Shown: positions 37,920 to 62,724, counted from the stretch's first letter. The stretch: 64,000 bases of DNA from a bacterium (GCA_963692865.2 OY843592.1:3744001-3808000); one strand, 5' to 3'. Program-made: numbers and translations. The notes: a model not told the origin generated them from the sequence alone.

Positions 37920-38259
37920 CGGCTGTTGAAAAAGCCCCTGGGTGGAGGAAAACCGACGTCATTCCGGCCTTGAGCCGGAATGACGTCGGTGGTCGATTCC
38001 GACCGATGAGGAACTGTTGAAAAACCCTGTTCCAGGGTCGGGCGGACACACAGGTCCGCCCCTACGTTTCGTTTCGCAGAGGTTGGCAGGTCAGACATGT
38101 ATGTCTGACATATCATGCGACCCGTATTGTGAAGGCGAAAAGGCAGGGCCGCATGATATGCGGCCCCTACGGTGAGATCCCGACCGGCCCGCAAGGGGTT
38201 TTTCAACAGCGCCGATGAGGAAGGAATCGACCGAGCGGGCCGGGTTATTCAACACCTCT
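37920..38259. mobile_element. Outer MITE (GGCTGTTGAAAAA...TTATTCAACACC) containing a nested MITE
   Basis: Degenerate TIRs, probable CCTGG duplication at 37915-19/38260-64, and a palindrome with 17-bp arms at 37952-37990. Confidence 0.6.
38010..38213. mobile_element. Nested MITE with REP cargo
   Basis: GGAACTGTTGAAAAA / TTTTTCAACAGCGCC ends, TSD GATGA at 38005-09 and 38214-18. Inserted in the loop of ggtcgattcc...ggaatcgacc. Confidence 0.8.
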
Positions 38260-38367
38260 CCTGGTGGCGAATCCTTCCCGCATACACGAAGGAAAAGGCC
38301 CCTTGCGTTCCTCGAATTCTCGCGGCGATACAGTCCCCACCGATAGAATTGTCCGGGCGTCGTACAT

Positions 38368-38752
38368 GGGGTCGTTGAAGAAGCCCCGTCTGCGACCCCC
38401 GCAAACCGCCAACGCCTCTTTCCACACCCTGAGTAGCCGCCGAAGGTCAAACGCGACTGAGAAGGGGTTGTTGAAAAACCCATCCCTCTCGCATCAACCA
38501 CGTTTTACCCGTAGGGGCCGCATATCATGCGGCCCTGCCTTTTTGCCTTCACAATACGGGCCGCATACTATGTCAGACATATATGTCTGACCTACCAACC
38601 TCTGCGAAACGAAACGTAGGGGAGGACCTGTGTGTCCGCCCGACCCTGGAACAGGATTTTTCAACAGCCCCTCATCGGTCGGGTTCGCGCCTTCGATACG
38701 CGGCTTCGCCGCTACTCAGGATGAAGCAGAGAGGCGGTTTTTCGACAGCCCC
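38368..38752. mobile_element. Outer MITE containing the nested MITE 38464-38671
   Basis: GGGGTCGTTGAAGAA / TTTTTCGACAGCCCC outer ends and GGGGTTGTTGAAAAA / TTTTTCAACAGCCCC inner ends. The inner part is a near-identical inverted copy of 37999-38172. Confidence 0.7.
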
Positions 38753-38806
38753 GCATACCCGCGCCGGACGAAACCCGCGCGCCATCCGGATGAGCGACGA
38801 TTCGCC

Positions 38807-39088
38807 ATGAAAGAGGAGACGCGGCGGATTCGCCTCATCATCCGGGGCCGGGTGCAGGGCGTATGGTACCGGGGCGGCGCGCAGGAGGTCGCCCGCGAAC
38901 TCGGCCTCACCGGATGGGTGAGAAACCTGGCCGACGGGAGCGTGGAACTCGTCGCCGAAGGCGAAGTCTCCGCGCTCGACGCCCTCAAGGGGTGGTGCCG
39001 GGAGGGGCCGCCCCTGGCGAGAGTCCACGACGTCTCCGAGGAGCCGTTGACGCCCCGCGGGGCGCCGGCCTCGTTCGAGGTGCGCTGA
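38807..39088 (+). CDS. acyP: Acylphosphatase
   Basis: GRVQGVWYR, GWVRNLADGSVE and GPPLARV motifs. Confidence 0.93.
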   Translation: MKEETRRIRLIIRGRVQGVWYRGGAQEVARELGLTGWVRNLADGSVELVAEGEVSALDALKGWCREGPPLARVHDVSEEPLTPRGAPASFEVR

Positions 39089-39091
39089 ACG

Positions 39092-39991
39092 CTAGATGCC
39101 CGTAAATCCCGTCCAGAAGATGAGATAGGCGGAAACGGCGTTCAGGTAGTTCGAGATCAGCAGAACCCCCACCAGCAGGAGCATGGCGCTGCTCGCGATT
39201 TCGACTCCGTGGAAATAGCGCCTGAACGATTGATGGAACCGGAAGAAATACCCCACGCCCAGGCCGCTCAGGAGGAACGGAACGCCCAGGCCTGCGGAAT
39301 AGCCCGCCAGCAGAACGACGCCCTGTCCCGCCGTTTGCTGCGTTCCGGCGAACAGGAGGATGCTGCCCAGAATCGGGCCGACGCAGGGCGTCCAGCCGGC
39401 GGCGAAGGTGACGCCCACCAGCATGCTGCCGAGCCAGCCTGCGGGCTTGCTCTTGAGCACGATGCGGTTCTCCGAGGAGAGCAGCACGGGCGCGAAGACG
39501 GCCACGAAGGCGTACAGAGCGGCGGCGGTGAGCGCCCCGCCCAGCGCGGGGTAGCCCTTTCGCAGGCCCGCCAGCCCCGCCAGGAAAACCAGGGCGGCGA
39601 AAGCGCCGCTCGCGCCGGTCGGCTTTTCGGAGAAAAACCGCTGCACCCTGAAGTCGAAGGCCCTGTCGCCGACGTAGAGGCCGAACATGGTGATCAGGAT
39701 GCCGCCCAGAAGCCTGACGTGGTCCTGATACTCGAAGAGTATCCTGCCCGCGTAGGAGGCGCCGGCGCCCAACAGGACGAAGACGAGAGAAAACCCCGCC
39801 ACGAAGAACAGGGAGTTCACCAGGATGACGGCTCTCACGCGGGCGGCCTCGCCGCTCTCGCGTATCTCCTCATAGGACAGGCCGGTCAGGTAGGAAAGAT
39901 AGCTGGGAACCAGCGGGAGGATGCACGGGGAGGCGAAACTCAAAACCCCCGCCGCGAAAGCCAGGCTCAAGGACACGTTTTCCGGGGCCAT
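39092..39991 (-). CDS. ccdA: Cytochrome c biogenesis protein CcdA (with an internal hydrophobic insertion)
   Basis: AGVLSFASPCILPLVP, GWTPCVGPILG and YSAGLGVPF motifs. Confidence 0.9.
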   Translation of the reverse strand: MAPENVSLSLAFAAGVLSFASPCILPLVPSYLSYLTGLSYEEIRESGEAARVRAVILVNSLFFVAGFSLVFVLLGAGASYAGRILFEYQDHVRLLGGILITMFGLYVGDRAFDFRVQRFFSEKPTGASGAFAALVFLAGLAGLRKGYPALGGALTAAALYAFVAVFAPVLLSSENRIVLKSKPAGWLGSMLVGVTFAAGWTPCVGPILGSILLFAGTQQTAGQGVVLLAGYSAGLGVPFLLSGLGVGYFFRFHQSFRRYFHGVEIASSAMLLLVGVLLISNYLNAVSAYLIFWTGFTGI

Positions 39992-40120
39992 CGTTTTCCC
40001 CTGTCGGAATCGCCGGCGGCCATGGGGGTGATCCGGTTGTTTCACTCCTTCCCGGCGAACCATCTTATCACAACGAAAACGATGGCCGGGACGATATTGC
40101 CGGGATGAAGAAAATCCGGA

Positions 40121-41443
40121 TCAGTTTCGACGCATCCCGTCTCCATCGAAGGGATTGTGGATGCATATGGTGTCATCGCGGCTCGGGCCCGTGGAGACGA
40201 GCCATACGGGCCTGTCGGTCAACTCTTCGAGACTTTTGATGTAATCCTTCGCCCGGGGAGGCAGTGCGTCATATTCCCGCACGCCCCCGGTGGGGGACAT
40301 CCAGCCGGGAAATTCCGCATATACGGGTTCGCACCGCTCCAGAATCGAGGTCTCCGCGGGGAAGACCGTGACGCGCTCGCCCTCGTATTCATAGCCCACG
40401 CAAACGCGAATCGTCTCCTGGTTGTCGAGCACGTCGAGCTTCGTCACCGCTATCGCGTCCATCCCGGCCACCTGGATGCAGTGGCGGGCCGCCACGGCGT
40501 CGAACCACCCGCACCGCCTGGGCCTCCCCGTCGTGGCGCCGAACTCGCCGCCCTCTTCTCTGAGAAGCCCGGCTTCGACCTCTCCCATCTCGGAGGGAAA
40601 CGGGCCCTGCCCCACCCGCGTGCAATACGCCTTCATGATGCCGAACACCGTGTTCAGCCGCCTGTAGGGCAGGCCCAGGCCGCTCATCGCCCCCCCGACG
40701 CCGGTGTTGCTCGACGTCACGAAGGGATAGGTGCCCATGTCCAGGTCGAGGAGGATCCCCTGCGCGCCTTCGAGCAGGATTTTCTTGTTCCCGTTCAAGG
40801 CGTCGTTGATCTCCGCGTCCGTGTTGCGCACGTGGGGGCCCAGCGTTTTCCGCACCTGGGAGCACACGTCCAGAACGTGGCCCTCGTCGAGCGCCCTCGT
40901 TTCCTCCTCGTTCAGATCGATGCCGCCCAGAAGCCGCTTCTTGATGGCCAGACTGACGCGGATGCGCTCCGTCAATATCTTCTCGTCGAACAGGTCCGAA
41001 ATCCGAACGCCCAGCCGCGCCGCCTTGTCGGAATAGGCCGGCCCGATGCCCCGGCCCGTCGTGCCGATGCGGTTGACGCCCAGAAGCTCCTCCATGTGGG
41101 AGTCGAGAACCTTGTGGTAGGGCATGATGAGGTGCGCGCGCTTGCCGAGGACGAGGTTCTCGCCGATCCCGATGCCCACGGAGCGGAGGTATTCGATCTC
41201 CTCCACCAGGGCCAGCGGGTCCACCACGACGCCCGAGCCGATGATGCACTTGACGCCCGCGTGCAGTATGCCGGTCGGTATCAGGTGGAGGATGTACCGG
41301 TTTCCCTCGACGACCACGGTATGGCCCGCGTTCGCGCCGCCCTGGTAGCGGGCCACCACGTCCGCCTGGCTCGCCAGCCAGTCGATGACCTTCCCTTTTC
41401 CCTCATCGCCCCACTGGCCGCCCAGAATCGCCAAAACGCTCAT
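40121..41443 (-). CDS. purA: Adenylosuccinate synthetase
   Basis: QWGDEGKGK, GGANAGHT, GTTGRGIGP, GATTGRPRRCGWFD and TKLDVL motifs. Confidence 0.98.
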   Translation of the reverse strand: MSVLAILGGQWGDEGKGKVIDWLASQADVVARYQGGANAGHTVVVEGNRYILHLIPTGILHAGVKCIIGSGVVVDPLALVEEIEYLRSVGIGIGENLVLGKRAHLIMPYHKVLDSHMEELLGVNRIGTTGRGIGPAYSDKAARLGVRISDLFDEKILTERIRVSLAIKKRLLGGIDLNEEETRALDEGHVLDVCSQVRKTLGPHVRNTDAEINDALNGNKKILLEGAQGILLDLDMGTYPFVTSSNTGVGGAMSGLGLPYRRLNTVFGIMKAYCTRVGQGPFPSEMGEVEAGLLREEGGEFGATTGRPRRCGWFDAVAARHCIQVAGMDAIAVTKLDVLDNQETIRVCVGYEYEGERVTVFPAETSILERCEPVYAEFPGWMSPTGGVREYDALPPRAKDYIKSLEELTDRPVWLVSTGPSRDDTICIHNPFDGDGMRRN

Positions 41444-42729
41444 CGGTCGTCATCCCTTCCGCCCACGCGGGCGAGAATTTCCTCGATCGGATACGCGCCC
41501 AGATCCTCCCCGTCCGGCTCGAGCAGCCTGGCGCGGCCTCCCCTCTTCCCGCCGCGCTCGATGACGAGGCATTTCGACACGCCCGACGCCCGCGCGTATT
41601 CCAGCGAGCCCGCGAGGTCGCGGCGGATGATGTCGCGCGCCACCCGCCAGCCCCGCGCCCTGAGTTTGCGGGAAAGAACGATGCCCGAGCGCTTCTCTCG
41701 CGTGAGGTCGATGACGAGGAAATCCGTTCCGTTCCTGTTCCGCGCCCCTTGCGTCACGAGGGGAAGCATCTGGTTCAGGTCGACGGCGAATCCCGTTCCG
41801 AGCGCGTCGTCGCCGTACAGCCCCAGGAGCTTGTCGTAGCGGCCGCCGCCGCACACCGGGTATCCCGAACCCTCGACGAACCCCTCGAATATCACCCCCG
41901 TATAGTAGTCGAAATCCTTGAAATCGCACAAATCGAAGATGACCCGCTCGGACAGCCCGTACAACTCCAGGATCCGGAACACCTTCAGCAGTTCGCGAAC
42001 CGCGCCCCTGGCCGCCGGCGTCCTTATTTTTTCCTCCACGCCCCGGATCACCTCTATCCCGCCGAAACACTCCGGAATCCGCTCGAGCAGCCCGGCGTCC
42101 GTCTTCTCGCGCGGGACGCCCCGGAGGAGGCCCGCCACGCCCGAGGAATCGCGCAGGCCTATCGCTTCGAGCAACTCGGCCCTTTGCGCGCCCGCCAGGC
42201 CCAGGCCGTTCAGAACCCCGCGCAGGAACGCGCCGTGGCTGAGCGACATGCGGAAGTTGTCCACCCCGTTCGCCCGCAGGCATTCCACGGCGATGGCGAT
42301 CATCTCGGCGTCGGCTTCCAGGGAGACCAGGCCGATCAGCTCCACGCCCGCCTGCCAGAACTCCCGCTGCAACTCCCCCGCCACGTGGGCGTGGCGAAAG
42401 ACGTTCGCCGCGTAGGAGAGCCTCAGGGGCCGGGGATGGGCGGCGAGAATCGTGCCGGCCGCCCTCGCGATTTGAGGCGTCATGTCCGCCCGGAGGGCCA
42501 GCAGGCCGCCGCTTTCCAGATCGACCATCCGGTAGGTCTGCGCGTCGAGAACCTCCGAACCCGCCCTGGGGACGTAGAACTCGAACGCGGGCGTGAGGAG
42601 TTCCCGGAAGCCCCACTGCTCGAACACGCCGAGGAGGCTCTCCTCCACCTCTCTCTTGCGCTTCGCTTCGCCCGGCAGGAAAACGCGCGAACCACCCGGA
42701 ATGGCCCGCAGGGACGCCGTCTGTCTCAT
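41440..42729 (-). CDS. hisZ: ATP phosphoribosyltransferase regulatory subunit
   Basis: LRADMTPQIAR, RLSYAANVFR, QAGVELIG, YYTG and GGGRYD motifs. Upstream of purA. Confidence 0.9.
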   Translation of the reverse strand: MRQTASLRAIPGGSRVFLPGEAKRKREVEESLLGVFEQWGFRELLTPAFEFYVPRAGSEVLDAQTYRMVDLESGGLLALRADMTPQIARAAGTILAAHPRPLRLSYAANVFRHAHVAGELQREFWQAGVELIGLVSLEADAEMIAIAVECLRANGVDNFRMSLSHGAFLRGVLNGLGLAGAQRAELLEAIGLRDSSGVAGLLRGVPREKTDAGLLERIPECFGGIEVIRGVEEKIRTPAARGAVRELLKVFRILELYGLSERVIFDLCDFKDFDYYTGVIFEGFVEGSGYPVCGGGRYDKLLGLYGDDALGTGFAVDLNQMLPLVTQGARNRNGTDFLVIDLTREKRSGIVLSRKLRARGWRVARDIIRRDLAGSLEYARASGVSKCLVIERGGKRGGRARLLEPDGEDLGAYPIEEILARVGGRDDDR

Positions 42730-44330
42730 GAAAAGCCCAACCGGACGAGGCAGGCGTCATAGACGTGGGGAATGGCCCGAACGCCCTCCATGACGGGCTC
42801 GGGCACCGGGTCGTCGAGTATGAGGACGGCGACGGCCATATCCTGCTGCCACACCCTGCCCAACTGCATCCCGGCGATGTTGATGTTGTGGTTCCCCAGC
42901 AGGGTGCCGATCTTGCCGATCATCCCGGGCCGGTCCTCGTTCCGGAATATGAGGAGATAGCCGCGGAGCGCCACGTCGACCGAGTAGTCGTCGATGCGGA
43001 CGATCCGGGGATCGTTCTTGCGGAGAAAAGTCCCCGCCACGGAGCGCTCGCCCGAGTCGGTCTTCACGCGAAGCTCGATCAGGTCGGTATAGAGGAGGTT
43101 CTCCGTCCGGGTCGTCGTCCTCACCTCGATGCCGCGCTCTTTCGCGAGCAGGAGGCCGTTCACCATGTTCACGCGGACGCTGGAGAGGAACCGGCCCAGC
43201 ATCCCCTTGATGGCCGAGGCGGCCAGCGCCCTCATGGGCATGTCGATGGCGCCGCCGTAGACCACTTCGAGCGTCTGCAGTCCCCCGCCCGCGAGCTGGG
43301 CCAGAAAATCGCCGAGGCGGTCGGCCAGGTCCAGGTGGGGGCCGATTTGCTCGAGCACCTCGGGACTTAAGGAAGGCAGGTTCACGGCGTGCCCGACCAC
43401 GCCTTCGGTCAGGTACGCCACGACCTGCTTCGCCACGCTGACCGCCACGTTCTCCTGCGCCTCCGCCGTCGATGCGCCCAGGTGCGGCGTGCAGACGACG
43501 TCCTCGCGCCCGATGAGCGGGTCGTTCGGGTCGGGAGGCTCCTGCTGGTATACGTCCACCGCCACGCCCCCGACCTTTCCGCCGTCGAGCGCCTCGGCCA
43601 GCGCCCCCTCGTCTATCAGCCCCCCGCGCGCGCAGTTGATGATGCGGACGCCGTCGCGCATCCGGGCGATTTCCTCTGCGCCGATGAGGTTTCCCGTTTC
43701 GGTGTTCTTCGGCACGTGCAGGGTGATGTAGTCGGACCTGGCCAGGAGTTCCTCGAAGTCCACCGGGCTCACCCCGCGCTGGGAGAGCACCTCGGCGGAG
43801 ATGTAGGGATCGTAGGCGAGGACGTCCATGCCCAGGCTGCGGGCGAACGTCGCCGTCTGCGAACCCACGCGCCCCATGCCGACGACGCCCAGGGTCTTAG
43901 AAGACAGCTCGCTGCCCACGAAGCGGCTCCGCTCCCACTTCCCCTGCTTGAGGGAGGAGACGGCGGAGGGAATCTTGCGCGCCAGCGAGAACATCATGGC
44001 GACGGTGTGCTCCGCCGTGGTGATGACGTTGCCGTCGGGCGCGTTCACCACCAGGATGCCGCGCACGCTGGCGGCTTCGAGGTCCACGTTGTCCACCCCG
44101 ATGCCTGCGCGCGCGACCACCTTGAGCGCCTCGCCCGCGCCCAGAAGCTCGTCGTCCACCCGCGTGCCGCTGCGGACGATGAGGGCGTCGGCCGTCTTTG
44201 CGGCTTCGAGTATCTCTTCGCGCGCCGCCGAGGTGCGGTCGAGGACTTCAAAGCCCTCCTGGTCCGCGAGTATCTCGTGCGCCCTCGGCGAGAGCGGCTC
44301 GGCAATCAGAACGCGAAACGCCCGGCTCAT
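42726..44330 (-). CDS. serA: D-3-phosphoglycerate dehydrogenase (with ASB and ACT domains)
   Basis: RAGIGVDNVD, GMGRVG, INCARGG, PHLGASTAEAQ and DRPGMIG motifs. Start at MSRAF. Confidence 0.95.
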   Translation of the reverse strand: MSRAFRVLIAEPLSPRAHEILADQEGFEVLDRTSAAREEILEAAKTADALIVRSGTRVDDELLGAGEALKVVARAGIGVDNVDLEAASVRGILVVNAPDGNVITTAEHTVAMMFSLARKIPSAVSSLKQGKWERSRFVGSELSSKTLGVVGMGRVGSQTATFARSLGMDVLAYDPYISAEVLSQRGVSPVDFEELLARSDYITLHVPKNTETGNLIGAEEIARMRDGVRIINCARGGLIDEGALAEALDGGKVGGVAVDVYQQEPPDPNDPLIGREDVVCTPHLGASTAEAQENVAVSVAKQVVAYLTEGVVGHAVNLPSLSPEVLEQIGPHLDLADRLGDFLAQLAGGGLQTLEVVYGGAIDMPMRALAASAIKGMLGRFLSSVRVNMVNGLLLAKERGIEVRTTTRTENLLYTDLIELRVKTDSGERSVAGTFLRKNDPRIVRIDDYSVDVALRGYLLIFRNEDRPGMIGKIGTLLGNHNINIAGMQLGRVWQQDMAVAVLILDDPVPEPVMEGVRAIPHVYDACLVRLGFS

Positions 44331-45466
44331 TCGTCGAATACCTCCTGCGCCGCCGCGAGGCCGCGCCCCCCCTCCACCGGAAAGCCCAGTTCGGCGAGGG
44401 TGGATTCCAGCGCGCCGACCGCCGTCAGCACGTCGGAGGAATCCACGTACCCCAGGTGGCCGATCCGGAAAATCCTGCCGCTCAGGGCGTCCTGCCCGCC
44501 GGCGATGGTCACCCCGTGCGCATCCTGCATTTTTCGGGGAATCGCCTTTCCGTCCACGCCCTCCGGCGCGCAGACGGCGGTGAGCGCCTCGCTCCTCAGG
44601 TCTCGGGGGAATATCTCGAGGCCCATCGCCTCGACGGCCGCCCCCGTCGCCCGCGCGAGCCGCGCATGACGCGCGAAGACGTTCTCCAGCCCCTCCTCGC
44701 GCATCATGTCGAGCGCGACCGCCAGGCCCGACAGGAGGGAGATGGCCGGCGTCCAGGCGGTGGTGTTCTTCATCTGGCTCTTCCGCTCGATGGCGAGGTC
44801 GAAGTAGTACCTCGGCGAGGCGGAGGCCGAAACGGCGCGCCAGGCCCGCTCGCTCAGCCAGACGAAGGCCAGCCCCGGCGGTAGCATCAGCGCCTTCTGG
44901 CTCCCCGTGATCACGGCGTCCAGGCCCCATTCCTCGGGCTTGAGGTCGTACACGCCCAGGGCGGTGATGGCGTCCACCGCCACGAGCGTATCGGGCGAGC
45001 GCTCGCGCACGAGGCGCGCGACGGCCCCCACGTCGTGCTTGGCGCCGGTGGAGGTTTCGCTCGCCTGCATCAGCAGGGCCTTGTGTCCGCCCCGCGCGAG
45101 GCGCGCCTCCAGGACTTCGAGATCGACCGAACGGCCCCATTCCACCTTCACGGCGTCCGCCTCGACCCCGTACGCCGCGCAGATCTCCGTCCAGCGTTCG
45201 CCGAACTTGCCGCCCTCGACGACGAGCGCGGAATCGCCCGGGGAGAGCAGGTTGGCCGCCGCCGCCTCCATGCCGCCCGAACCCGACGCGGCGAGGGTGA
45301 TGACGTCCCCGCTCGTCTGGAAGAGCCATTCGAGGCCGCGCCGCGTCTCCTCGAAGTGCGCCTCGAACTCCCGCGTGCGGTGGTGGATGAGGGGGCGCGC
45401 CATGGCTTCGAGCACCCGGTGCGGGACCGGCGTGGGGCCGGGGGCCATGAGATGGTGCTTGTTCAT
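44327..45466 (-). CDS. Class V aminotransferase (AGT/serine-pyruvate type; probable phosphoserine aminotransferase role)
   Basis: PGPT, ETSTG, VDAI, GSQKALMLPPGL and FRIGHLG motifs. Coupled to serA. Confidence 0.9.
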   Translation of the reverse strand: MNKHHLMAPGPTPVPHRVLEAMARPLIHHRTREFEAHFEETRRGLEWLFQTSGDVITLAASGSGGMEAAAANLLSPGDSALVVEGGKFGERWTEICAAYGVEADAVKVEWGRSVDLEVLEARLARGGHKALLMQASETSTGAKHDVGAVARLVRERSPDTLVAVDAITALGVYDLKPEEWGLDAVITGSQKALMLPPGLAFVWLSERAWRAVSASASPRYYFDLAIERKSQMKNTTAWTPAISLLSGLAVALDMMREEGLENVFARHARLARATGAAVEAMGLEIFPRDLRSEALTAVCAPEGVDGKAIPRKMQDAHGVTIAGGQDALSGRIFRIGHLGYVDSSDVLTAVGALESTLAELGFPVEGGRGLAAAQEVFDE

Positions 45467-45637
45467 TTTTCGTTCTTTCCCCGATTGTCGTTGCGGACGA
45501 ACGCGCGGCTGCACCCCAAGGATATACCATCCCCCGCGAAACCCCTCAAGCGGATGCCGTCTGAAAAGCGGGGGCGATGCGTGAAGAAACGAGCGCAAAA
45601 GCCGGATTTCGCGCCCCTTTTCGCGAGTATTTATAAG

Positions 45638-46491
45638 GCCGTTCGCGAACGGCCCTCGCCGAAGAAAGCGGGCGCTTCGCGAACCGCCCCTGCGGGAAAA
45701 TCGCGGGGAAGGCGGAAGGCAGGAAGACAATGCCTTTCGTAGGTCGGACATATATGTCCGACATATCATGCGACCCTGATTTTTCGCCCCTCCGGCAACG
45801 GGCCGCATACTATGCGGCCCCTACGGGTGAAAACCCGATTGGCGCGGGAGGGGAGCCCGATCATCGAATTGTTCACCGTCATTCCGGCGGCATCGCCGTT
45901 TCCGTAGGTCGGACATATATGTCCGACATATCATGCGACCCGGCCTTTTTCGCCGCCCCTGGACGCGGGCCGCATGATATGCGGCCCCTACAGTCGTCAT
46001 TCGAGGGGGCGCACGGGAACCGCGACGGGGCCGTTGAAAAAACCCCCTGCCGGTCGGGACCCCACCGTAGGTCAGACATATATGTCTGACATGATATGCG
46101 GCCCCTGCGGGAAAATCGCGGGGGCGGCGCGGAAGGCGGAAGACAATGCCTTTCGTAGGTCGGACATATATGTCCGACATATCATGCGACCCTGATTTTT
46201 CGCCCCTCCGGCAACGGGCCGCATGATATGCGGCCCCTACAGTCGTCATTCGAGGGGGCGCACGGGAACCGCGACGGGGCCGTTGAAAAAACCCCCTGCC
46301 GGTCGGGACCCCACCGTAGGCCAGACATATATGTCTGACATGATATGCGGCCCCTGCGGGAAAATCGCGGGGACGGCGCGGAAGGCGGGAAGACAATGCC
46401 TTTCGTAGGTCGGACATATATGTCCGACATATCATGCGGCCCGGCCTTTTTTCGCCGCCCGGACGCGGGCCGCATGATATGCGGCCCCTAC
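45638..46491. repeat. BIME/REPIN-like mosaic array of GTAG-REP doublets (about 249-bp period in part)
   Basis: Doublets GTAGGTCGGACATATATGTCCGAC...GGGCCGCATGATATGCGGCCCCTAC at 45739, 45904, 46155 and 46405, with short forms near 46067 and 46316. Linkers recur. Confidence 0.9.
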
Positions 46492-46520
46492 AAAAACCAA
46501 CCCCGCGGATATCCACCCAC

Positions 46521-46550
46521 AAAAAAACCGGGGGGCCGAAGCCCCCCGGT
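46521..46550 (-). terminator. Intrinsic terminator of the porin gene
   Basis: ACCGGGGGGC-TTCG-GCCCCCCGGT followed by a T-run on the minus strand. Confidence 0.85.
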
Positions 46551-46591
46551 CGGTTTCGCGTCAGGATGGGACGCGAACGTCCTTCATGCGG

Positions 46592-48064: not shown

Positions 48065-48093
48065 AGAATAGAGAAGACGGCGCTCTTTGTCAA
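48065..48093 (-). promoter_or_regulatory. Sigma70 promoter for the porin, overlapped by an inverted repeat (48051-48080)
   Basis: TTGACA-17-TATTCT on the minus strand; dyad ccgtctttctc...gagaagacgg. Confidence 0.65.
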
Positions 48094-49044: not shown

Positions 49045-49074
49045 AATCGCCTGAAAACCGGGGCGACTCGCCGC

Positions 49075-49358
49075 GGGCCGTTGAAAAAGCCCTCCTGACA
49101 GGGTAAAGGCAACCCCCCCTACCCCCCTTGTCAGGGGGGTAAAAAAAACAACGCCTCTCGTCGGGGGGGGAGTAAATTCAAATCCCCCCTTGACGGTGTT
49201 GTTGAAAAACCTATCCCTCTCGCATCAACCACGTTTTACCCGTAGGTCGGACATATATGTCCGACATAGTATGCGGCCCGCATTGTGAAGGCGAAAAGGC
49301 AGGGCCGCATGATATGCGGCCCCTACACACTTCCTTCTCCGGCTTTCTCAACAGCCCC
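49075..49358. mobile_element. Compound MITE/REP element
   Basis: TIR-like ends at 49075, 49195 and 49344-49358, with an 85-bp REP doublet at 49242-49326. Confidence 0.65.
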
Positions 49359-52213: not shown

Positions 52214-52219
52214 ATCCAC

Positions 52220-52807: not shown

Positions 52808-53402
52808 AAAGGCATTGAACGAGGCCTGTTCCGGGGTCGGGCTGACACACGGATCCGCCCCTGTAGTCGTCATCCAGGATGGTATTGCAGGCGGCGATTC
52901 CTCCCGCATCGGTCGAAATCGACCTCCCTCTCCGGTCGGAACCGACTCCTCGGGAGCGCCCCACACATATCATGCGGCACGGCCTTTTCCGCCCCTCCGA
53001 CGACGCGCCGCGCATTTCCCCGCATTTCGCGTCATGGGCGAGGCGGCGGCGCGTGGCAGGATCGCCCTCCGATACCGTGGGCCGTCCGTTTCCGAAAAAC
53101 GGGCGAATTCCCGTACAATAAGATAAATTCGGATAAAATTGGATAAATAAAGATAAATTTATTGAGGCCAAATAGCTGAAAATAAAGGCGTTCAGTCGTT
53201 TTTGCACGAAACGGCGCATGAGGGAAGGGATCGCGCCGAAAAGGCGTCCGCCTCTTTTTTGACGAAAACGTCCACCCGCCGGCGCGCCTCGTCAGAGCCG
53301 GGATAATCGGCCCGAAAGCCCGCGCGCAGGCGCCCCGTCCGCGCGGCGAACCCGGCCCGCAAGGGGTCTTCAAAAACGTCGAAACGCGGGGCGCGGCTCA
53401 AC

Positions 53403-55298: not shown

Positions 55299-55557
55299 GC
55301 GTCCTCTCTCATCCGTTGCCTGAACTATCGGGTTTCCCGCCAAGGCGCCGGCAGCCGCCCGGAAAAGAACGGCTGCCGCATGGAAAGGCTCCCGGTATGC
55401 GGCCCGGCTCAAGTAATTTCAGGGACATCCGAATCATCATGCCGCATCATGACAACAAAACCTCCGCCCCGCCAGCAGAAACGTCGATAAAATCGTCCAT
55501 CTCGTCCGCTTTTCCTTTTGACTCCCGGCGAAACGACTGCTAGTCTTTTCACTTACG

Positions 55558-55636
55558 AGTTCGCTGGGGGTGCCTTGCAGGCTGAGAACAAACCCTTCGA
55601 ACCTGAACCGGTTAGCGCCGGCGTAGGGAAGCGACA
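55558..55636 (+). ncRNA. TPP riboswitch
   Basis: GGGGTGC...GCTGAGA...ACCC...GAACCTGAACCGGTTAGCGCCGGCGTAGGGA upstream of thiC. The anti-SD ttctccgac can pair with gtcgggaga at the RBS. Confidence 0.95.
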
Positions 55637-55724
55637 GGTCTTCCAAATCCTCCGGTTTCCCTTCGCCGACATGTGAATAAAGAGGGTTCATCCCAGGGGA
55701 AAGCTTCATCCTTCTCCGACATGA

Positions 55725-57539
<1,815 letters not shown>

Positions 57540-57564
57540 TTCGCTTATACAAACAACCCGAACC

Positions 57565-57606
57565 AAACCCCGCTTGGGTTAAAACCCAGGCGGGGTTTTT
57601 GTTTTC
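57565..57606 (+). terminator. Intrinsic terminator after thiC
   Basis: aaaccccgcttgggtt-aa-aacccaggcggggttt followed by a T-rich tail. Confidence 0.85.
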
Positions 57607-57684
57607 ATTCGAAAATCAACACAAGACTTTGGCGCCGAATTGATGATAAATTTCTCTTATCGGACCAAGTCGAGGGGAGCCGTC

Positions 57685-58743
57685 ATGTCGCTGAGAATGG
57701 GCGTTTGGGCGCCGGTGTGGGGCACGTTTCTGGGGCGTGTCGAAAAGCCCGAGACGGTGAAGGAGGCCTCCTTCGAGCACAACGCGCGCTACATCCGGCG
57801 CGCGGAAGCGTTGGGCTTCGAGAGCACCCTGCTGCTGGACAGGAGCCTCAACAGCATCAAGGGCGTGGGCGCGCCGGTTCTGGAGGCCTGGATCACGGCG
57901 GCGGCGCTCGCGCCCATCACGGAGAAAATCGAGCTCATCGTCGCCGCCAAGAGCGCCTACCGCCACCCATCGCTCGTCGCCCAGATGGGGGCGAACATCG
58001 ACTGCATCAGCGGGGGGCGCTTCGCCATCAACATCGTCTCGGGCTGGTGGGGGCAGGAAAACGAGATGGCGGGCATCCCCTTCCCGCCGCACGATGAACG
58101 CTACGATCTGTCCGAAGAAGTCATGCGCATCCTCAAATCCTACTGGACGAAGGAGCGCTTCAGCTTCAAGGGCAGGTATTTCCAGATTACCGACGGCGTC
58201 ACCGCGCCCAAACCCGTCCGAAAGCCCTGGCCCACGTTTTATTTCGGGGGCGAATCGACCGCCGCCGTGAAGCTGGCCGGCAAGGCCGCGGACGTTTTCC
58301 TGTTCAACGGCCGTTCACTCGCAGAAGCGCGGGAGTTGATGGCCGCCGTGAACCATGAAGCGGAAGCAAATGACAGAACCATCCGCCACGGGATGAGCTC
58401 GTTCATCGTCTGCCGCGATACGGACGAGGAGGCCCGGTCGGAACTCGATCGCCTTTTCTCGCTCATCACCGAAACGCCCAGGCTCAAGGGCGTCGACAAG
58501 GCCGCCCAGCACAAGAAAACGAGCGCGAGAGGAGGCGGCGTGGGCTCGAACGGCGGCACGGCGACGGGCCTCGTCGGCTCGCCTGAAACCATCGCCGAGC
58601 GCATCATGGCGTTTCACGAGGCGGGTGTGGAGTTGTTCCTCCTCCAGTTCCATCCCATGTTCGAGGAGATGGAGCGCTTCGCGTCTGAGGTCATGCCGCT
58701 TTTGCCCCTGGGCGAGAAGGCGCCCGAGGCGGGGAAGGTCTAG
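57685..58743 (+). CDS. LLM class flavin-dependent oxidoreductase (SsuD/SfnG-like)
   Basis: AEALGFE, LEAW, ISGGRFAINIVSGW, HDERY, GGES and LVGSPETIA motifs. Confidence 0.9.
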   Translation: MSLRMGVWAPVWGTFLGRVEKPETVKEASFEHNARYIRRAEALGFESTLLLDRSLNSIKGVGAPVLEAWITAAALAPITEKIELIVAAKSAYRHPSLVAQMGANIDCISGGRFAINIVSGWWGQENEMAGIPFPPHDERYDLSEEVMRILKSYWTKERFSFKGRYFQITDGVTAPKPVRKPWPTFYFGGESTAAVKLAGKAADVFLFNGRSLAEARELMAAVNHEAEANDRTIRHGMSSFIVCRDTDEEARSELDRLFSLITETPRLKGVDKAAQHKKTSARGGGVGSNGGTATGLVGSPETIAERIMAFHEAGVELFLLQFHPMFEEMERFASEVMPLLPLGEKAPEAGKV

Positions 58744-58750
58744 TTCCCGT

Positions 58751-59227
58751 TCACTCCAGCGATACGCGCGCGCCCAGCCCGAAGCCGTTTCTGAGAAACC
58801 AGCCCTGGTTCACCTCCAGCACCCGGCGAACCTTGTTTCGCGAGCGATAGGAGGGAATCCGCGTCCCCGGCCTGTGGGGCTGCAAGTGGATGATTTCCAA
58901 CACCTTTCCGTTCTTGTCGATGAAGGCGAGCGAAAGCGGAATCAGCGTGTTCTTCATCCAGAAAAAGCGCCTCGCATCATCCTTGTAAACGAAGAGCATA
59001 CCGGCGTTTTCGGCCAGCCGCTCCCGGCCCATGAGGCCCTGCGCGCGGGTGAGGGCGTCAGCGGCGATCTCGACCGAGAGCCTGGCCTCGCGCCCCTCCT
59101 GGGTGACCCGCGCCACTCCCTTTTCGAACGTCTGGGCGGCGGCGGATGAGGGCGCGAGCAACGCCCATGCGAGCGCCGCGGCGCGGGCAAAGCCGATCCT
59201 TGAAATCGATCTCACGGATAACCTCAT
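58751..59227 (-). CDS. DUF192 domain exported protein
   Basis: VEIA...RAQGLMGR...GMLFVY...FWMKNTLIPL...VLEVNQG. Confidence 0.92.
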   Translation of the reverse strand: MRLSVRSISRIGFARAAALAWALLAPSSAAAQTFEKGVARVTQEGREARLSVEIAADALTRAQGLMGRERLAENAGMLFVYKDDARRFFWMKNTLIPLSLAFIDKNGKVLEIIHLQPHRPGTRIPSYRSRNKVRRVLEVNQGWFLRNGFGLGARVSLE

Positions 59228-59629
59228 ATGGAACAGCTACTTAAAGGGACACGCGAGGAGCGCCGCCCGGAGAAATTCGACCCCGCATTTCCCCGCATTT
59301 GCCGTCATCGCCGGCGCAGCGGACTATGGCAGAATTCTCCCGTGCTGCGCTCCGGCGGCGGCGTTTCCCAAGAAATAAATCCTCATTTATTTGTCGAAAA
59401 ACATCGTGAATTTATCCAATTTTATACAATTTCATCCAATTTTTCAGAAATTCGTTTCCCGGTTCGACAACCCTCGCGCAGCGCCGCCATACCCGGCCCG
59501 CAGCCTCGCCGCCGCGGGCGAATGCGGGAAAACGCGCGCCCGGTTCCGGGCGAAGCGGGAGGATTCGACCCGCCCGGGACAGGAGGCCGCCCGAGCCTCG
59601 CGGGAACGCCCCCCGCGCCTGCCGCTCCA

Positions 59630-59944
59630 GGGGTTGTTGAAAAACCCCTCCTCGCTCGGAATTGACCACCGCCGTCATTCCGGCGAAAGCCGGAATCCAT
59701 TTTCAAGCAGAATGACAATACTTCGGCTTTTCATCTCCTCGTCATTGGCGGGAGCCAATCAGGAAAAAACAAAGGCAAAACAAACAAATGGATTCCGGCT
59801 TTCGCCGGAATGACGAACAAAACCGAACCGCCTCGAAAGGACAGGCCGCGACCTCGAAAAGGCGAAAGGGCCTGTCCGCTACGCACCCCCTCCCCGGTTG
59901 GTTCCATTCACCAAATCACGAAAACGGGCTTTTTCAACAACCCC
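59630..59944. mobile_element. MITE with an inverted GTCATTCCGGCGAAAGCCGGAATCCA pair
   Basis: Perfect 15-bp TIR GGGGTTGTTGAAAAA/TTTTTCAACAACCCC, TSD CTCCA at 59625-29 and 59945-49. Confidence 0.88.
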
Positions 59945-60491
59945 CTCCAGGGCGGGTAGAGCGGTCCGCTTCCACGGCAAGTTCGGCCTCGCTCCTCATT
60001 CCGGCGCATGTCGAAACAGCGGCAACCCCGAAGTTCCCTCATGGTTTCCCGCGCTTGTCCCTGCCCCGGGTCGCCGCCCGTCAGGACAAGCGCGGCGCGG
60101 TGGCCCGTCCCGGCGGCCGGGACGCAAGATTCGCCGGGCGGCGCGGGGGCGCCGGACTTCCCGAAGAGGGGAGTTCGACCGTTGCCGCCCTTGCGATGAG
60201 AAAACTCCGGGCGGCAAGAATTGAATCTCGCCGCTGCGTCAGGATGGAGAATGACGAGGCTTCGCAGGGCCGGGACGGTTTGGGCCGCGCGCGTTCGCAT
60301 CAAAACCCGTTCAATGGGAGAATACCTCACCAAAGTCTCACGGAACTCGCGAAAGGGCCGGAAGCGGCGCCTGAACCCCCGGGCGGGCGTCCCGATTCGG
60401 GCGCGCGGCGGTGGGGCATCCACCGGGGTTCGGCGGGCGCGCTCCCGAAGCCCCCGCTCATTCATCCCGCCGCGGACAGGGAGGAACCACA

Positions 60492-60959
60492 ATGGCCGGA
60501 GACCATCATCACTTCATGGGGCTGGCGCTCGGGGAATCGCGTCTTGCGCTCGAGGCGGGGAACCCGCCCGTCGGCTCGATCATCGTCAGGGACGGAGAGG
60601 TGATCGGCAGGGGGCAGAACCGCGCCGTCTCCCGCAACGACCCCACCTGCCACGGCGAGACCGACGCCATCCGGAACGCATGCCGGGCGCTGGGCGCTCC
60701 CGATCTCCCCGGCTCGACGCTCTACACGGCGATGGAGCCCTGCCCGATGTGCTGCTGGGCCATCGTCCTGGCGAAGGTCGAAACGCTCGTCCTGGGCGCG
60801 CGCCACGCGGAAATGGGGCGAACCGACTACGGCGACTATTCCGTCGAGAAACTCCTGGACATGGGGAACCAGACCGTCGAGCTCGTCACGGGGGTCCGGG
60901 TGGCCGAATGCGAGGCGCTCCGGCGCAGCTGGTCGGGGTGGGTGGAGCCCGAAGCGTAG
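60492..60959 (+). CDS. Nucleoside deaminase (TadA/guanine deaminase-like)
   Basis: NPPVGSII, DPTCHGE and EPCPMC motifs. Confidence 0.9.
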   Translation: MAGDHHHFMGLALGESRLALEAGNPPVGSIIVRDGEVIGRGQNRAVSRNDPTCHGETDAIRNACRALGAPDLPGSTLYTAMEPCPMCCWAIVLAKVETLVLGARHAEMGRTDYGDYSVEKLLDMGNQTVELVTGVRVAECEALRRSWSGWVEPEA

Positions 60960-60974
60960 CCTTCGAGCGAAAAC

Positions 60975-61121
60975 GAGGCTGTTGAAAAAGTCCTGTGGAG
61001 TGAATTTAGTTGCACGCACGCTTTTGAAATTCACTCCCCCCTCAAGGGGGGAGTGGTTCTTCTCTCTCATCTGTTGATTCCAAACGCCGAACCATGAAAT
61101 CGGGACTTTTTCAACAACCCC
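60975..61121. mobile_element. MITE between the deaminase and creatininase genes
   Basis: GAGGCTGTTGAAAAA/TTTTTCAACAACCCC ends, TSD AAAAC at 60970-74 and 61122-26, internal cactcccccc-tcaa-ggggggagtg hairpin. Confidence 0.85.
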
Positions 61122-61139
61122 AAAACGAGGAGAAAATTC

Positions 61140-61964
61140 ATGAGCCGCTGGATACAGGAACTGACCTGGCCGGACGTGGCGGAATACCTCGAGCGCGCGG
61201 ATACGGCGCTCGTGCCCGTCGGCGCCACGGAGCAGCACGGGCCGCACTGCCCCATCGGAACGGACGCGGCCGAGGCCATCGCGACCGCGGAAGAAGTGGC
61301 CGGGCGGGCGGACGCCCTCATCGCCGCGCCCCTGTGGTTCGGGTGGTCGCCCCATCACCTGGGCTTTCCGGGAACGATATCCCTCGCCGCGGATACGCTG
61401 ACGCGCGTCGTCGAGGACGTGTGCAACAGCCTCGTGGTTCACGGCTTCCGGCACATCGTGATCCTGAACGGGCACCGGGTCGCGAACCTCCCGCCATTGG
61501 AGATCGCCGTCGTGCGGGTCAGGAACCTGACGGGCGCCGCCGTCGCCGTCGTGGACCTCGCCCTCATCGCCGGGAAGGAGATTCGAGACGTCTGCGAGAG
61601 TCCCCCCGGAGGCGTGGGCCACGGGTGCGAATCCGAGACCTCCTTCATGCTCTACAAGTACGGCGAGCAGGTGAAGATGGAGCGCGCCGTGGACGCGATT
61701 CCCGAGGTGGGCGATTTCGAGCGCCGCTTCGTGTCCGTGGACCACGCCGTCAACCGGGTCGAAAACCCGAAACTCTCCTTTCCGCCGACGATAGAGGAAT
61801 ACGGGAGCAACCGGGAAGCGATGGGCGTCGGCGGCGCGGCCACCCTGGCATCGGCTGAGAAGGGGGAGAAAATCTTCGAGGCCATCGCGGCGAACGCGAC
61901 GAGATTCGTCAAAACCTTTCAGAACGTGTCCGTCTCCATCAAGGCGACCGCCCCGCCTCTTTAG
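61140..61964 (+). CDS. Creatininase family protein
   Basis: PVGATEQHGPHCPIGTD, SPHH..FPGT, NGH and HGCESETS motifs. Confidence 0.92.
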   Translation: MSRWIQELTWPDVAEYLERADTALVPVGATEQHGPHCPIGTDAAEAIATAEEVAGRADALIAAPLWFGWSPHHLGFPGTISLAADTLTRVVEDVCNSLVVHGFRHIVILNGHRVANLPPLEIAVVRVRNLTGAAVAVVDLALIAGKEIRDVCESPPGGVGHGCESETSFMLYKYGEQVKMERAVDAIPEVGDFERRFVSVDHAVNRVENPKLSFPPTIEEYGSNREAMGVGGAATLASAEKGEKIFEAIAANATRFVKTFQNVSVSIKATAPPL

Positions 61965-62345
61965 GGAGGTGTTGAAAAACCCCTCCTCGCTCGGATTGAC
62001 CACCGCCGTTATTGTCGTTTCTATTGTAGGGGCCGCATATCATGCGGCCCGGCTTTTTCGCCTTCACAATACGGGTCGCATGATATGCGGCCCCTGCAAT
62101 CGAGATTGCACGCCGTCATTCCGGCGCATGCCGGAATCCAGGGACTTTGCTTTGGAATTCGTCTTTTCGCATATTGTTTTTCATGGTCGTCCTGCGGTTC
62201 GAAATTCACCTCGGCTCTGGATTCCGTCGAACCCTCCCTCCGCGGTCGGCTCCGACACCGGAATGACGAGCAAAACCGTCGAACCCTCCCTTCCCGGTCG
62301 GCTGCATTCGCCGAATCGCGAAATCAGGTGTTTTTCAACAGCCCC
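61965..62345. mobile_element. MITE carrying a REP doublet and a GTCATTCC pair
   Basis: GGAGGTGTTGAAAAA / TTTTTCAACAGCCCC ends. Left and right arms resemble those of 59630-59944. No TSD seen. Confidence 0.75.
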
Positions 62346-62531
62346 TTGTCAGGAGGGGTATAACAAGGCCATGTATCCGCGCTCGGTCGGCGACGCGATG
62401 ATCCCGTAGGGGCGGACCTGTGTGTCCGCCCGACTCCGGAACAGGGTTTTTCAACATCCTCTTGTCAGGGGGTATAAAAAGGCGATGTGCCCCGCCGGGT
62501 AGAGAGGCTTTTTCTTCTTACCCCCTGACAA

Positions 62532-62724
62532 GGGGCTGTTGAAAAAGCCCTCCTCGCTCGGATTGACCACCGCCGTCATTGTCGTTTCTATTGTAGGGGC
62601 CGCATATCATGCGGCCCGGCTTTTTCGCCTTCACAATACGGGTCGCATGATATGTCGGACATATATGTCCGACCTACGGGTAAAACGTGGTTGATCCGAG
62701 AGGGACAGGTTTTTCAACAACCCC
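62532..62724. mobile_element. MITE carrying an 85-bp REP doublet
   Basis: GGGGCTGTTGAAAAA / TTTTTCAACAACCCC ends, TSD GACAA at 62527-31 and 62725-29. Inserted in a C-run/G-run hairpin. Confidence 0.88.

Follow-up and report, generated by a model that had tools for sequence, protein, structure and literature searches.

Short extragenic palindromes are known to serve as landing sites for transposases, as in the case of IS1397 of Escherichia coli, which lands in palindromic units. The REP-specific insertion sequences ISPsy8, ISPa11, ISPpu9, ISPpu10, ISRm22 and ISRm19 provide further examples (PMC1525189). Stem-loop targeting has already been described for the IS1182 family: in the sections of PMC5678879 drawn on here, stem-loops are the insertion sites of its member IS1272, a 'loop only' duplication route forms part of the proposed model, and palindrome targeting in the family is credited to Siguier et al. 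MITEPye1 of Paracoccus yeei is an IS1182-related MITE (PMC11578231). Among repeats made of palindromes, REPINs with their RAYTs and the GTAG-tagged REPs comprise GTAG-headed inverted doublets with a spacer, present in hundreds of copies (PMC3116915, PMC3337134 and PMC3733652), and the bacterial interspersed mosaic elements (BIMEs) of enterobacteria are named in PMC2817692.

The 64-kb stretch of bacterial DNA analysed in this work (the window) contains repeats that belong to a very large, unusually abundant and modular family of small non-coding transposons. As for the REP-specific IS and IS1397, short extragenic palindromes are the landing sites; however, the elements described in the cited part of PMC1525189 are full-length IS, whereas the main product here is a high-copy MITE population carrying such palindromes inside. 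Like MITEPye1, the repeats are non-coding and have IS1182-like terminal repeats flanked by short direct repeats. By contrast, MITEPye1 is described with 4-bp direct repeats and one to three chromosomal copies (PMC11578231), and in the present genome the direct repeats are 5 bp long, ∼1070 ends fall in ∼490 islands, and the elements combine ∼20 arm classes with palindrome cargo.

Terminal ends, element architecture and the autonomous partner

In the window, 15 copies of the end motif TGTTGAAAAA are present against an expected 0.05 (100 shuffles; largest shuffle count, 2), and there are 658 in the 4.15-Mb genome. When the 15-mer GGGG[CT]TGTTGAAAAA was searched with up to two mismatches, 1073 ends were found genome-wide, compared with 12 in the reversed genome, and the motif first noticed in a preliminary description of this DNA is therefore real. 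Neighbouring copies were convergent (+ then −) and less than 800 bp apart in 143 cases, and divergent and less than 1000 bp apart in 26. A wider catalogue holds 328 paired elements with a median length of 267 bp (5th-95th percentile, 160-588 bp), which is below the room needed for a 480-amino acid ORF. These pairs make up 2.4% of the genome in total, and 417 ends are unpaired. Among the matches listed, no fewer than 9 of 12 same-genus genomes contain the same repeat family.

Each element consists of a terminal repeat of 15-19 bp, an arm of 15-45 bp, at least one palindrome module (in most cases an inverted doublet headed by GTAG), a second and different arm, and a closing terminal repeat. The interiors are thus combinations of arms and modules, as had been proposed, with the arms joining the palindromes at the GTAG head. 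The ∼20 arm classes are common to several families and are found almost only adjoining a terminal repeat (44 of 45 genome matches for arm 3, 32 of 32 for arm 5 and 23 of 23 for arm 11).

There are 21 ends in the window, making up eight paired elements and five solo ends, so the earlier count of about nine elements was a fair one. An outer element at 37919..38259 (+) has a left end with one mismatch (37919-37933) and a probable degenerate right end, TTATTCAACA, at 38245-38254, read by eye and unscored. It carries the GTCATTCC palindrome and hosts a 204-bp element at 38010..38213 (+), in which arms 9 and 7 surround a GTAG palindrome doublet core and the flanks carry the duplication GATGA. A 385-bp element at 38368..38752 (+) has arms 10 and 2, degenerate ends (two and one mismatches) and a core formed by a doublet of GAGTAGCGGCGAAGCCGC-type palindromes; nested within it is a 208-bp chimeric element at 38464..38671 (+; arms 3 and 9), flanked by gagaa and tcatc with no matching duplication. 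Solo left ends were located at 46027..46041 (+; one mismatch; arm related to class 7), at 46276..46290 (+; same small arm class) and at 49074..49088 (+; two mismatches; arm class 12), the last being followed by a target palindrome of the CTACCCCCC..GGGGGGTA type. A 164-bp element at 49195..49358 (+) combines arm 3 with a singleton arm.

Five further features lie towards the end of the window. The 315-bp element at 59630..59944 (+; arms 1 and 0) carries GTCATTCC palindrome cargo and lies in a non-repeat target with the duplication CTCCA; both of its junctions are bridged by short-read contigs, and a near-identical copy is present at C1:2186330-2186644. A 147-bp element at 60975..61121 (+; arms 4 and 0) has the duplication AAAAC, and a 381-bp element at 61965..62345 (+; arms 1 and 0) has no matching duplication (tttag and ttgtc). 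A solo right end with arm 9 and two mismatches is found at 62447..62461 (−). The 193-bp element at 62532..62724 (+) belongs to the arm 1/3 family and has the duplication GACAA inside a TACCCCCT..GGGGGG palindrome; four other copies of this family on contig C1 are mutually identical and their arm 1 starts with CCCC, compared with GCCC in the window copy. All four duplications named in the preliminary description are accordingly present, and its alpha, gamma, delta and zeta arms correspond to class 1 (at 59630, 61965 and 62532), class 3 (at 38464, 49195 and 62710-62724), class 9 (at 38010, 38657-38671 and 62447-62461) and class 7 (at 38199-38213; the arms at 46027 and 46276 form a small class related to it).

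No transposase is encoded in the window, as had been stated, and one is encoded twice elsewhere in the genome. The guess of an IS1182-type DDE enzyme proved right: two IS1182-family copies with the same ends lie elsewhere on the chromosome. Each is 1514 bp long, with no mismatches between them, and encodes a 480-amino acid DDE transposase scoring 345.5 bits against the NCBIfam IS1182 model NF033551 (cut-off, 270) and 91.6 bits against the next family, IS5, which is under the cut-off of the latter. A whole-genome profile scan recovered the same two copies. As judged by domain matches, one transposase ORF holds DUF772 (PF05598), DDE_Tnp_1_6 (PF13751) and DDE_Tnp_1 (PF01609), all above gathering scores. 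The IS is bounded by a perfect 19-bp terminal inverted repeat, GGGGCTGTTGAAAAACCCC, and the consensus end of the miniature elements, GGGG[CT]TGTTGAAAAA[GC]CC, equals this end. Both copies have a 5-bp duplication (ctcaa and ttgag) and both lie inside the same repeat family. Related IS in other metagenome-assembled chromosomes (76-82% amino acid identity) have the same ends and target kinds, and of 38 such copies whose ends are clear, 17 have a perfect 5-bp duplication. The IS1182-family transposase would then move in trans any short DNA bounded by matching terminal repeats. The terminal repeats, the 5-bp duplications and the IS-like ends all bear out the earlier reading of these repeats as MITEs.

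The arms gave no match to subterminal IS DNA, either in the IS copies of related chromosomes or in those of this genome, and the sequence matches that the comparison returned fall in flanking target repeats. The element interiors were consequently not recognised as internal-deletion derivatives of the parent IS, a feature that is usual for MITEs and not required of them. Comparison of the arms with one another likewise showed them to be unrelated.

Target duplications and the insertion site

Of the 143 exact-core pairs, 46 have identical 5-mers immediately outside the 15-bp ends, compared with 0-2 for unrelated offset cells. In the wider catalogue, perfect 5-bp duplications flank 59 of 328 pairs, compared with 1 of 328 in a shifted control, and the genome-wide scoring proposed in the preliminary description thus revealed clear enrichment. 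Five groups of identical copies were found at different loci, most copies having a perfect duplication, as expected for recent movement. Perfect duplications are nonetheless confined to 18% of the pairs and are nearly absent from whole families (2-10, 0 of 11; 4-6, 0 of 9; 0-1, 1 of 12). Many such units may never have transposed as a whole, or may have moved by a duplication-free mode. Target-like half-sites were present on both flanks of 81 of 201 pairs lacking a duplication, against 3.4% at random, so that separate insertions seem to have given rise to the two ends of these pairs.

The target consensus is a symmetric CCCCCY-N5-RGGGGG of which the central 5 bases are duplicated, with C at 58-85% from −6 to −1 and G at 51-85% from +1 to +6. 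At least four of six flanking positions are complementary at 43 of 59 sites, compared with 818 of 5000 random sites. Insertions lie mostly inside other short palindromic repeats, at the 5-nucleotide centre of a CCCCC-N5-GGGGG palindrome, and the reconstructed target sites also occur unoccupied in the genome, with up to 97 exact copies of one core. It is envisaged that the transposase makes staggered cuts at both feet of the palindrome loop, and that each junction would rebuild a similar stem-loop because the tips of the element are themselves GGGG...CCCC. IS1272 has the same transposase family, short inverted-repeat targets and termini that form a target-like inverted repeat. However, IS1272 reportedly replaces the target stem-loop without duplication, whereas here the stems remain in place around a duplicated 5-nucleotide centre; this corresponds to the 'loop only' route, which the cited sections of PMC5678879 drew only as a possibility. 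Furthermore, the present target has a sequence consensus (C-run, N5, G-run) and not merely a structure as for IS1272.

Insertion into other elements is frequent. Nested pairs account for 36 of 328, 525 of 1073 ends have at least three ends within 500 bp, and 16 of the 59 perfect-duplication insertions lie inside another element. Relative to the fraction of the genome that they occupy, elements receive ∼10-fold more insertions than predicted, giving rise to nests, and the families of the preferred targets also supply some of the cargo palindromes. Different elements were observed at neighbouring sites in two strain variants. Empty sites were sought, as had been recommended, and no clean filled-versus-empty pair was found between strain contigs or among the best-supported joints in the short-read contigs. 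The double role of the short repeats as insertion targets had been missed in the preliminary description.

Palindrome doublets and the RAYT question

A typical doublet comprises a GTAG-headed palindrome, e.g. GTAGGGGCCGCATATCATGCGGCCC, a spacer and an inverted copy ending in CTAC. Copies within 300 bp of an end numbered 197 of 225 for REP1 (merged copies on C1), 86 of 97 for REP2, 63 of 72 for REP3, 230 of 303 for REP4 and 72 of 114 for REP8, that is, 63-89% of GTAG/GTCATTCC palindrome copies compared with 10% of random positions, although this co-location could come in part from elements inserting beside palindromes. A distance of more than 600 bp to the nearest terminal repeat was seen for only 18 of 225 REP1 copies and 7 of 97 REP2 copies. 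Given that they sit almost only beside element ends, the GTAG doublets look like cargo of the DDE element and not an independent mobile layer, and their amplification would have occurred as such cargo. A dispersal of doublets independent of transposon ends, as expected of a REPIN-RAYT system, is not the pattern observed. By contrast with REPINs and RAYTs as described in the papers cited above, no RAYT gene was found here, and DDE-type terminal repeats with target duplications surround the doublets.

The preliminary description had proposed a two-layer system in which a DDE transposase moves the elements and their cargo is reshuffled by REP-directed recombination. In such a system, a RAYT or another enzyme with GTAG hairpins as its substrate would cut the interior modules and rejoin them. 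Several junctions have the form that such an enzyme predicts. The arms of the listed elements join the palindrome core exactly at GTAG/CTAC, and within one arm pair small palindromes replace a few bases right after GTAGG, as in the 5-11 variants of 169, 182, 206 and 225 bp. The linkage of arms to palindrome variants is mixed, arm 7 standing beside variant C in 18 of 19 cases and arms 3 and 5 each adjoining three or four variants; this pattern fits a crossover inside the core and an exchange exactly at the GTAG boundary alike and does not separate the two. Since a GTAG start defines the palindrome family, plain recombination between shared palindromes predicts the same boundary. Y1_Tnp matches occur in 6 of 12 same-genus genomes, where only two span most of the domain and one of these has an in-frame stop. 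A profile search for Y1/HUH (RAYT-type) transposases gave no PF01797 match in the present genome, which is 97.4% complete with 6.7% contamination, such that a single-copy gene could be unassembled. The best same-genus Y1-like ORF has no relative here and, in its own genome, is flanked by none of the palindromes tested. Thus, the DDE layer of the earlier proposal was upheld and the REP-directed RAYT layer was not, and the two-layer system as a whole is considered quite unlikely. Reshuffling at REPs, in the form of ordinary recombination or conversion, is the likeliest source of the mosaics.

Mosaic interiors and exchange of segments

Within the catalogue, the two arms of a pair never belong to one class. 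Favoured combinations are 5-11 (16 pairs), 7-9 (15), 0-1 (12), 2-10 (11), 1-3 (10) and 4-6 (9), in addition to many off-pairings. The chimeras 3-7 (162 bp) and 3-5 (172 bp) are each present in identical form at two loci; a perfect 5-bp duplication flanks both 3-7 copies and one of the two 3-5 copies. Like these elements, BIMEs are mosaics of palindromic units and a limited set of other short motifs. To our knowledge, BIMEs lack terminal inverted repeats, target duplications or a known DDE mobiliser. The module arrays described here are also combinatorial, yet are bounded by IS-type ends with duplications.

Strain-variant contigs with ∼97% identical flanks swap the segment between palindrome and terminal repeat at the same site. 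At three positions (C1:1183.2 kb versus C4, C1:1538.9 kb versus C8 and C1:3660.4 kb versus C6), the sequences are shared up to the palindrome, differ in the middle and are shared again from the terminal repeat outward. Such in situ replacement suggests recombination that uses shared palindromes and ends as anchors. Homologous recombination or gene conversion between elements would produce the mosaics, with the palindrome core that the elements have in common as one anchor and the common terminal repeat, together with its repeated target flank, as the other. With anchors on both sides, an arm would be exchanged as a block, and those chimeras that recur would have kept two good ends and then transposed again.

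Mosaics could also come from transposition, either by use of any two convergent ends in a nest or through families born independently by capture of different DNA. The nests, the 417 unpaired ends and the absence of kinship of the arms with one another or with the IS are all compatible with such an origin. However, use of outer ends would leave internal terminal repeats, of which there are none in the simple chimeras 3-7, 3-5, 3-9 and 3-11, and a given arm is found with several partners while the core stays the same. Furthermore, the three strain differences replace an arm block while the end and flank stay. An origin of the mosaics by transposition is therefore unlikely.

That the chimeras are assembly artefacts of a repeat-rich metagenome bin is highly improbable. 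Contamination of the bin amounts to 6.7%, parts of the main contig recur in seven small contigs (mostly at 95-99% identity), and short-read contigs over the region do not span whole elements. Against this, the structure is regular, identical chimera copies occur at different loci with different duplications, the family is shared by most of the same-genus genomes counted above, and flank-to-end junctions are bridged with no differences by short-read contigs from four runs (three samples of one study, possibly including the source sample). Taken as a whole, a model of IS1182-type MITEs with hairpin-loop targets, palindrome cargo and segment swapping by recombination probably accounts for the family.

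A more speculative and rather doubtful reading is that the arm and palindrome modules are exchanged at the hairpin feet (GTAG) by the stem-loop cleavage of the transposase itself, in line with the 'stem-loop replacing' that has been proposed for IS1272, and not by host recombination. The family would be a self-sustaining combinatorial system run by a single DDE enzyme, a structure-directed IS1182 transposase spreading REPIN-like doublets without a RAYT. If true, a REP population would be maintained by an enzyme class other than RAYT, and the elements, by bringing landing pads of their own, would seed new insertions.

Terminal repeats and the IS1182-type transposase

Within the window (main contig C1, 3744001-3808000), 15 copies of the terminal repeat core TGTTGAAAAA were counted, compared with 0.05 in shuffled sequence, and 658 copies are distributed across the 4.15-Mb genome. 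Alignment of all copies gave a conserved end of GGGG[CT]TGTTGAAAAA[GC]CC. When up to two mismatches were allowed, the 15-mer end gave 1073 genome matches and 12 in the reversed genome. Convergent (plus-then-minus) neighbours less than 800 bp apart numbered 143, mostly with a separation of 117-400 bp, and minus-then-plus neighbours less than 1000 bp apart numbered 26. The 21 ends within the window resolve into 8 pairs and 5 solo ends. All four of the 5-bp target duplications named in the preliminary description were found in the window, and the enrichment that it anticipated extends genome-wide. Outer 5-mers were identical in 46 of the 143 exact-core pairs (0-2 in unrelated offset cells) and, in a wider catalogue, in 59 of 328 pairs; when the comparison was shifted as a control, one pair of 328 matched. 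A hairpin within the terminal repeat itself (GGGGN-TGTTGAAAAA-N'CCCC) was considered and rejected, since paired counts matched the expectation under independence (393 observed and 376 expected for positions -1/+10, with similar results for the other four position pairs).

Two of the convergent pairs spaced 0.8-3.5 kb apart are copies of one and the same 1504-bp unit, which has an open frame of 485 codons. Including the outer GGGGC, these two insertion sequence (IS) copies are identical over 1514 bp, end in a perfect 19-bp inverted repeat and are bordered by 5-bp duplications. Given that the encoded 480-aa transposase (C1:1724400-1725842 in one copy) contains DUF772 and DDE domains and scored 345.5 bits against the NCBIfam IS1182 model (cut-off 270), the family guessed in the preliminary description was correct. 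Its remark that no transposase is encoded in the window is also true of the window; elsewhere, a whole-genome scan revealed the two IS copies and two weak fragments.

Relatives of the transposase with 76-82% identity are present in many copies in several metagenome-assembled chromosomes, and relatives with 59-60% identity were observed in alphaproteobacterial bins. The relatives' IS loci with clear ends (n = 38) share the same terminal repeat, 17 of the 38 have a perfect 5-bp duplication, and they are flanked by C-run/G-run repeats of the kinds found in the source genome. Two of three alphaproteobacterial relatives carry this terminal motif at each end, and for the third a one-mismatch left end alone was found. 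The miniature elements (MITEs) are likewise distributed through the genus: among the matches listed, the element part of the query was matched in 9 or more of the 12 same-genus genomes.

Other open frames were also observed between convergent MITE ends. One 364-aa ORF (start ...MNYFAGLDVSLEWTSVCVVD...) is found at two places on the main contig, C1:1779968-1781879 and C1:1957197-1959412, which suggests another insertion sequence landing inside these elements. At C1:2058298-2059898, where the flanks come from two different target families, a 433-458-aa ORF possibly represents a further IS inserted into an element.

Target sites and the duplicated pentamer

The end alignment revealed that bases outside the ends are also conserved, and a 15-base register was apparent in an offset scan. 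To reconstruct target sites, each element flanked by a perfect duplication was excised along with one of its two duplicate pentamers. The reconstructed sites fall into a few repeat families, examples being AAGCCCGACC-CTCAA-GGGGGGAGTG, CTACCCCCC-TTGTC-AGGGGGGTA and AAACGCGACT-GAGAA-AGGAGCGTTT, and many are present in the genome unoccupied too. Their logo is CCCCCY-N5-RGGGGG, and at least 4 of 6 complementary pairs surround the duplicated 5-mer at 43 of 59 sites, compared with 818 of 5000 random positions. Both IS copies keep GGGGC/GCCCC despite having different targets, and the left outer pentamer is not copied by the right inner pentamer. The inner GGGGY/RCCCC is therefore part of the element rather than of the target, such that the duplicated part consists of the five central bases. 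Insertion of this kind would rebuild a C-run, N5, G-run motif at each junction. Tandem re-insertion into stem-loops rebuilt at junctions was rejected, as no divergent end pair was found at the expected 25-bp spacing.

The target preference fits reports on the IS1182 family. In one such report (PMC5678879), insertion at stem-loops is described for IS1272, a member of the family, and some IS1182 members reportedly target palindromes. According to the same text, IS1272 replaces the stem-loop without duplication, a "loop only" duplication being shown only as a drawn alternative, whereas the elements analyzed here duplicate a loop-sized 5-mer. The elements are also preferred landing pads for one another, given that another element hosts 16 of the 59 insertions that have a perfect duplication, against a genome share of 2.4% for paired elements.

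Arms and probable palindrome cargo

Clustering of the 60 bases inside each end yielded about 20 arm classes with 9-88 members each, together with 189 singletons. The arms alpha, gamma, delta and zeta of the preliminary description correspond to classes 1, 3, 9 and 7, respectively, at the positions it reported. Arms are nearly always joined to an end, as observed for 44 of 45 genome matches of arm 3, 32 of 32 of arm 5 and 23 of 23 of arm 11. An origin of arms as remnants of IS subterminal DNA was rejected because no match was found inside any IS body compared. Similarly, the arms of favoured pairs do not behave as diverged inverted copies, since partner alignment scores (4-5) were no higher than background.

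The arm-to-palindrome boundary lies exactly at the GTAG head, or the arm enters a GTCATTCC- or CACTCCCCCC-type palindrome, and element cores are mostly inverted doublets. Palindromes lay within 300 bp of an end in 197 of 225 cases for family REP1, 86 of 97 for REP2, 63 of 72 for REP3, 230 of 303 for REP4 and 72 of 114 for REP8; the corresponding value for random positions was 10%. GTAG REPs and the RAYTs (REP-associated tyrosine transposases) proposed to mobilise them are well described (PMC3733652, PMC3116915 and PMC3337134). However, no Y1/HUH transposase domain was found in the source genome (97.4% complete, 6.7% contamination). Given this result and the rarity of palindromes far from an end, the doublets are read as cargo and appear to have been spread by the DDE element. 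The preliminary description was confirmed as an observation, and its two-layer interpretation is partly right: the DDE/IS1182 part stands and the RAYT layer is not supported. A RAYT may nevertheless be present in the source genome and unassembled, or may have been lost. Y1 matches, mostly partial, were obtained in 6 of 12 same-genus genomes. None of the palindromes tested flanks the best of these Y1-like ORFs, and a search of the source genome returned no relative of it. The cargo includes palindromes of the target type. Several IS are already known to insert into REP sequences (PMC1525189).

Locus L064 of one same-genus genome (G006:C2:233728-234072) contains a 169-aa Y1_Tnp-like ORF (40.2 bits). 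Inspection by eye revealed HWQ where His-hydrophobic-His would be expected, and no GTAG palindromes were found within 1.4 kb. Some members of the 5-11 family (named, as below, by arm pair), for example those at C1:381308, 439562 and 2791579 (members of 182, 206 and 225 bp), have the bases directly after GTAGG swapped for small palindromes, either TCAGACATATATGTCTGAC or TGACAACCCCTCCTCGGGGTTGTC..., once duplicated. Such differences within one arm pair imply that palindrome modules are modular at a fixed point.

Mosaic elements and probable strain variants

In none of the pairs do the two ends share an arm class. Six combinations are predominant (5-11, 7-9, 0-1, 2-10, 1-3 and 4-6), and many off-pairings occur besides. 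Several of the resulting chimeras have perfect duplications, and identical copies were found at different loci for chimeras 3-7 (162 bp, two copies) and 3-5 (172 bp, two copies), as well as for the 1-3 (four) and 5-11 (three) families. Chimeras are thus evidently able to move. In elements 1-3 (193 bp), 3-7 (175 bp) and 7-9 (204 bp), the core is essentially common to all three, the flanking arms being the sole difference.

The small contigs C2-C8 are mostly 95-99% identical to stretches of the main contig C1, with a few blocks at 82-92% (C7 corresponds to window 5164-21073). This level of identity suggests that they are strain variants of C1 regions, which would probably account for the 6.7% "contamination" figure and provide a built-in population sample. 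At three sites, strains match up to a palindrome and from the terminal repeat outward, and the block between differs; at a fourth, each strain has a different element at neighbouring positions. A fifth difference consists of 151 bp inserted or deleted within a GTCATTCC doublet. At C1:344526 and C5:28263-28415, a GTCATTCC doublet with a ∼130-bp spacer in one strain corresponds to a single hairpin in the other, and the missing stretch is bounded by the short direct repeat TTCCGGCA. A replaced block with conserved flanks was also observed between window 12501-13418 (C1:3756501-3757418; 916 bp) and C7:7657-8241 (583 bp); the end-core motif (10 bases, up to one mismatch) is present once in the former gap and absent from the latter.

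Target-like half-sites are present on either side of the element in 81 of the 201 pairs without duplication, compared with 3.4% at random, and the two ends of these 81 appear to be products of different insertions. Two insertions in the halves of one doublet followed by deletion were not supported as a general route of chimera formation. That route predicts reverse-complementary flanks; such flanks (at least 12 of 15 matches) occurred in 2 of 201 pairs and 2.0 in shuffles, and exact reverse-complement flanking 5-mers in 5 and 2.6, respectively. Mosaics may also have arisen by exchange through an enzyme acting at the hairpin foot; linkage of arms to palindrome variants, which contrasts crossover in the core with exchange at GTAG, was mixed. 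The combination of identical chimeras, shared cores, strain differences and two-event ends favours recombination or conversion between elements as the source of the mosaics. Exchange of this type would be anchored by shared palindromes on one side and by the terminal repeat and repeated flank on the other.

The assembly was checked against short-read contigs of four runs, which come from three samples in a single study and may include the source sample. These contigs contained 85-87% of sampled words. They bridge flank-to-end junctions without differences and end inside repeats, such that whole interiors are not spanned. The search for empty sites proposed in the preliminary description returned no clean example in the data searched: no contiguous one was evident in the match table for same-genus genomes (flanks ∼75% identical), strain contigs had replaced or neighbouring elements, and none was present among the best-supported joints listed for the short-read contigs, which break in repeats. 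In all four runs, summed contig depth over the GTCATTCC and arm 1 parts (window 59672-59795 and 62028-62151) exceeded that of unique flanks by factors of hundreds to thousands. The samples must therefore contain these modules in very high abundance, possibly in more than one organism.

An IS1182-related MITE of Paracoccus has 18-bp ends, 4-bp repeats and 1-3 copies (PMC11578231), whereas the present population is high-copy with a 5-bp duplication. In a literature search limited to article texts, no paper was found describing high-copy IS1182 MITEs that target palindrome centres with a loop-sized duplication, in combination with REP doublets carried without a RAYT in the genome and arm-block exchange; papers returned for chimeric or nested bacterial MITEs mostly concerned plants, and the matches listed for sponge Nitrospinota repeats contained nothing on these elements. 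The elements supply natural data on stem-loop insertion, a little-studied property of the IS1182 family, in that dozens of targets have been reconstructed, their consensus is clear and the duplication is loop-sized. GTAG doublets, usually credited to RAYT tyrosine transposases, are abundant here without one, and block-wise arm exchange between fixed anchors offers a natural example of mosaic-repeat formation. Annotators of these genomes should mask or name the elements before they interpret apparent "novel RNA" or "small ORF" signals at such places, as the elements account for a large part of the intergenic repeats in the genus, occupying at least 2.4% of the genome in about 490 islands.
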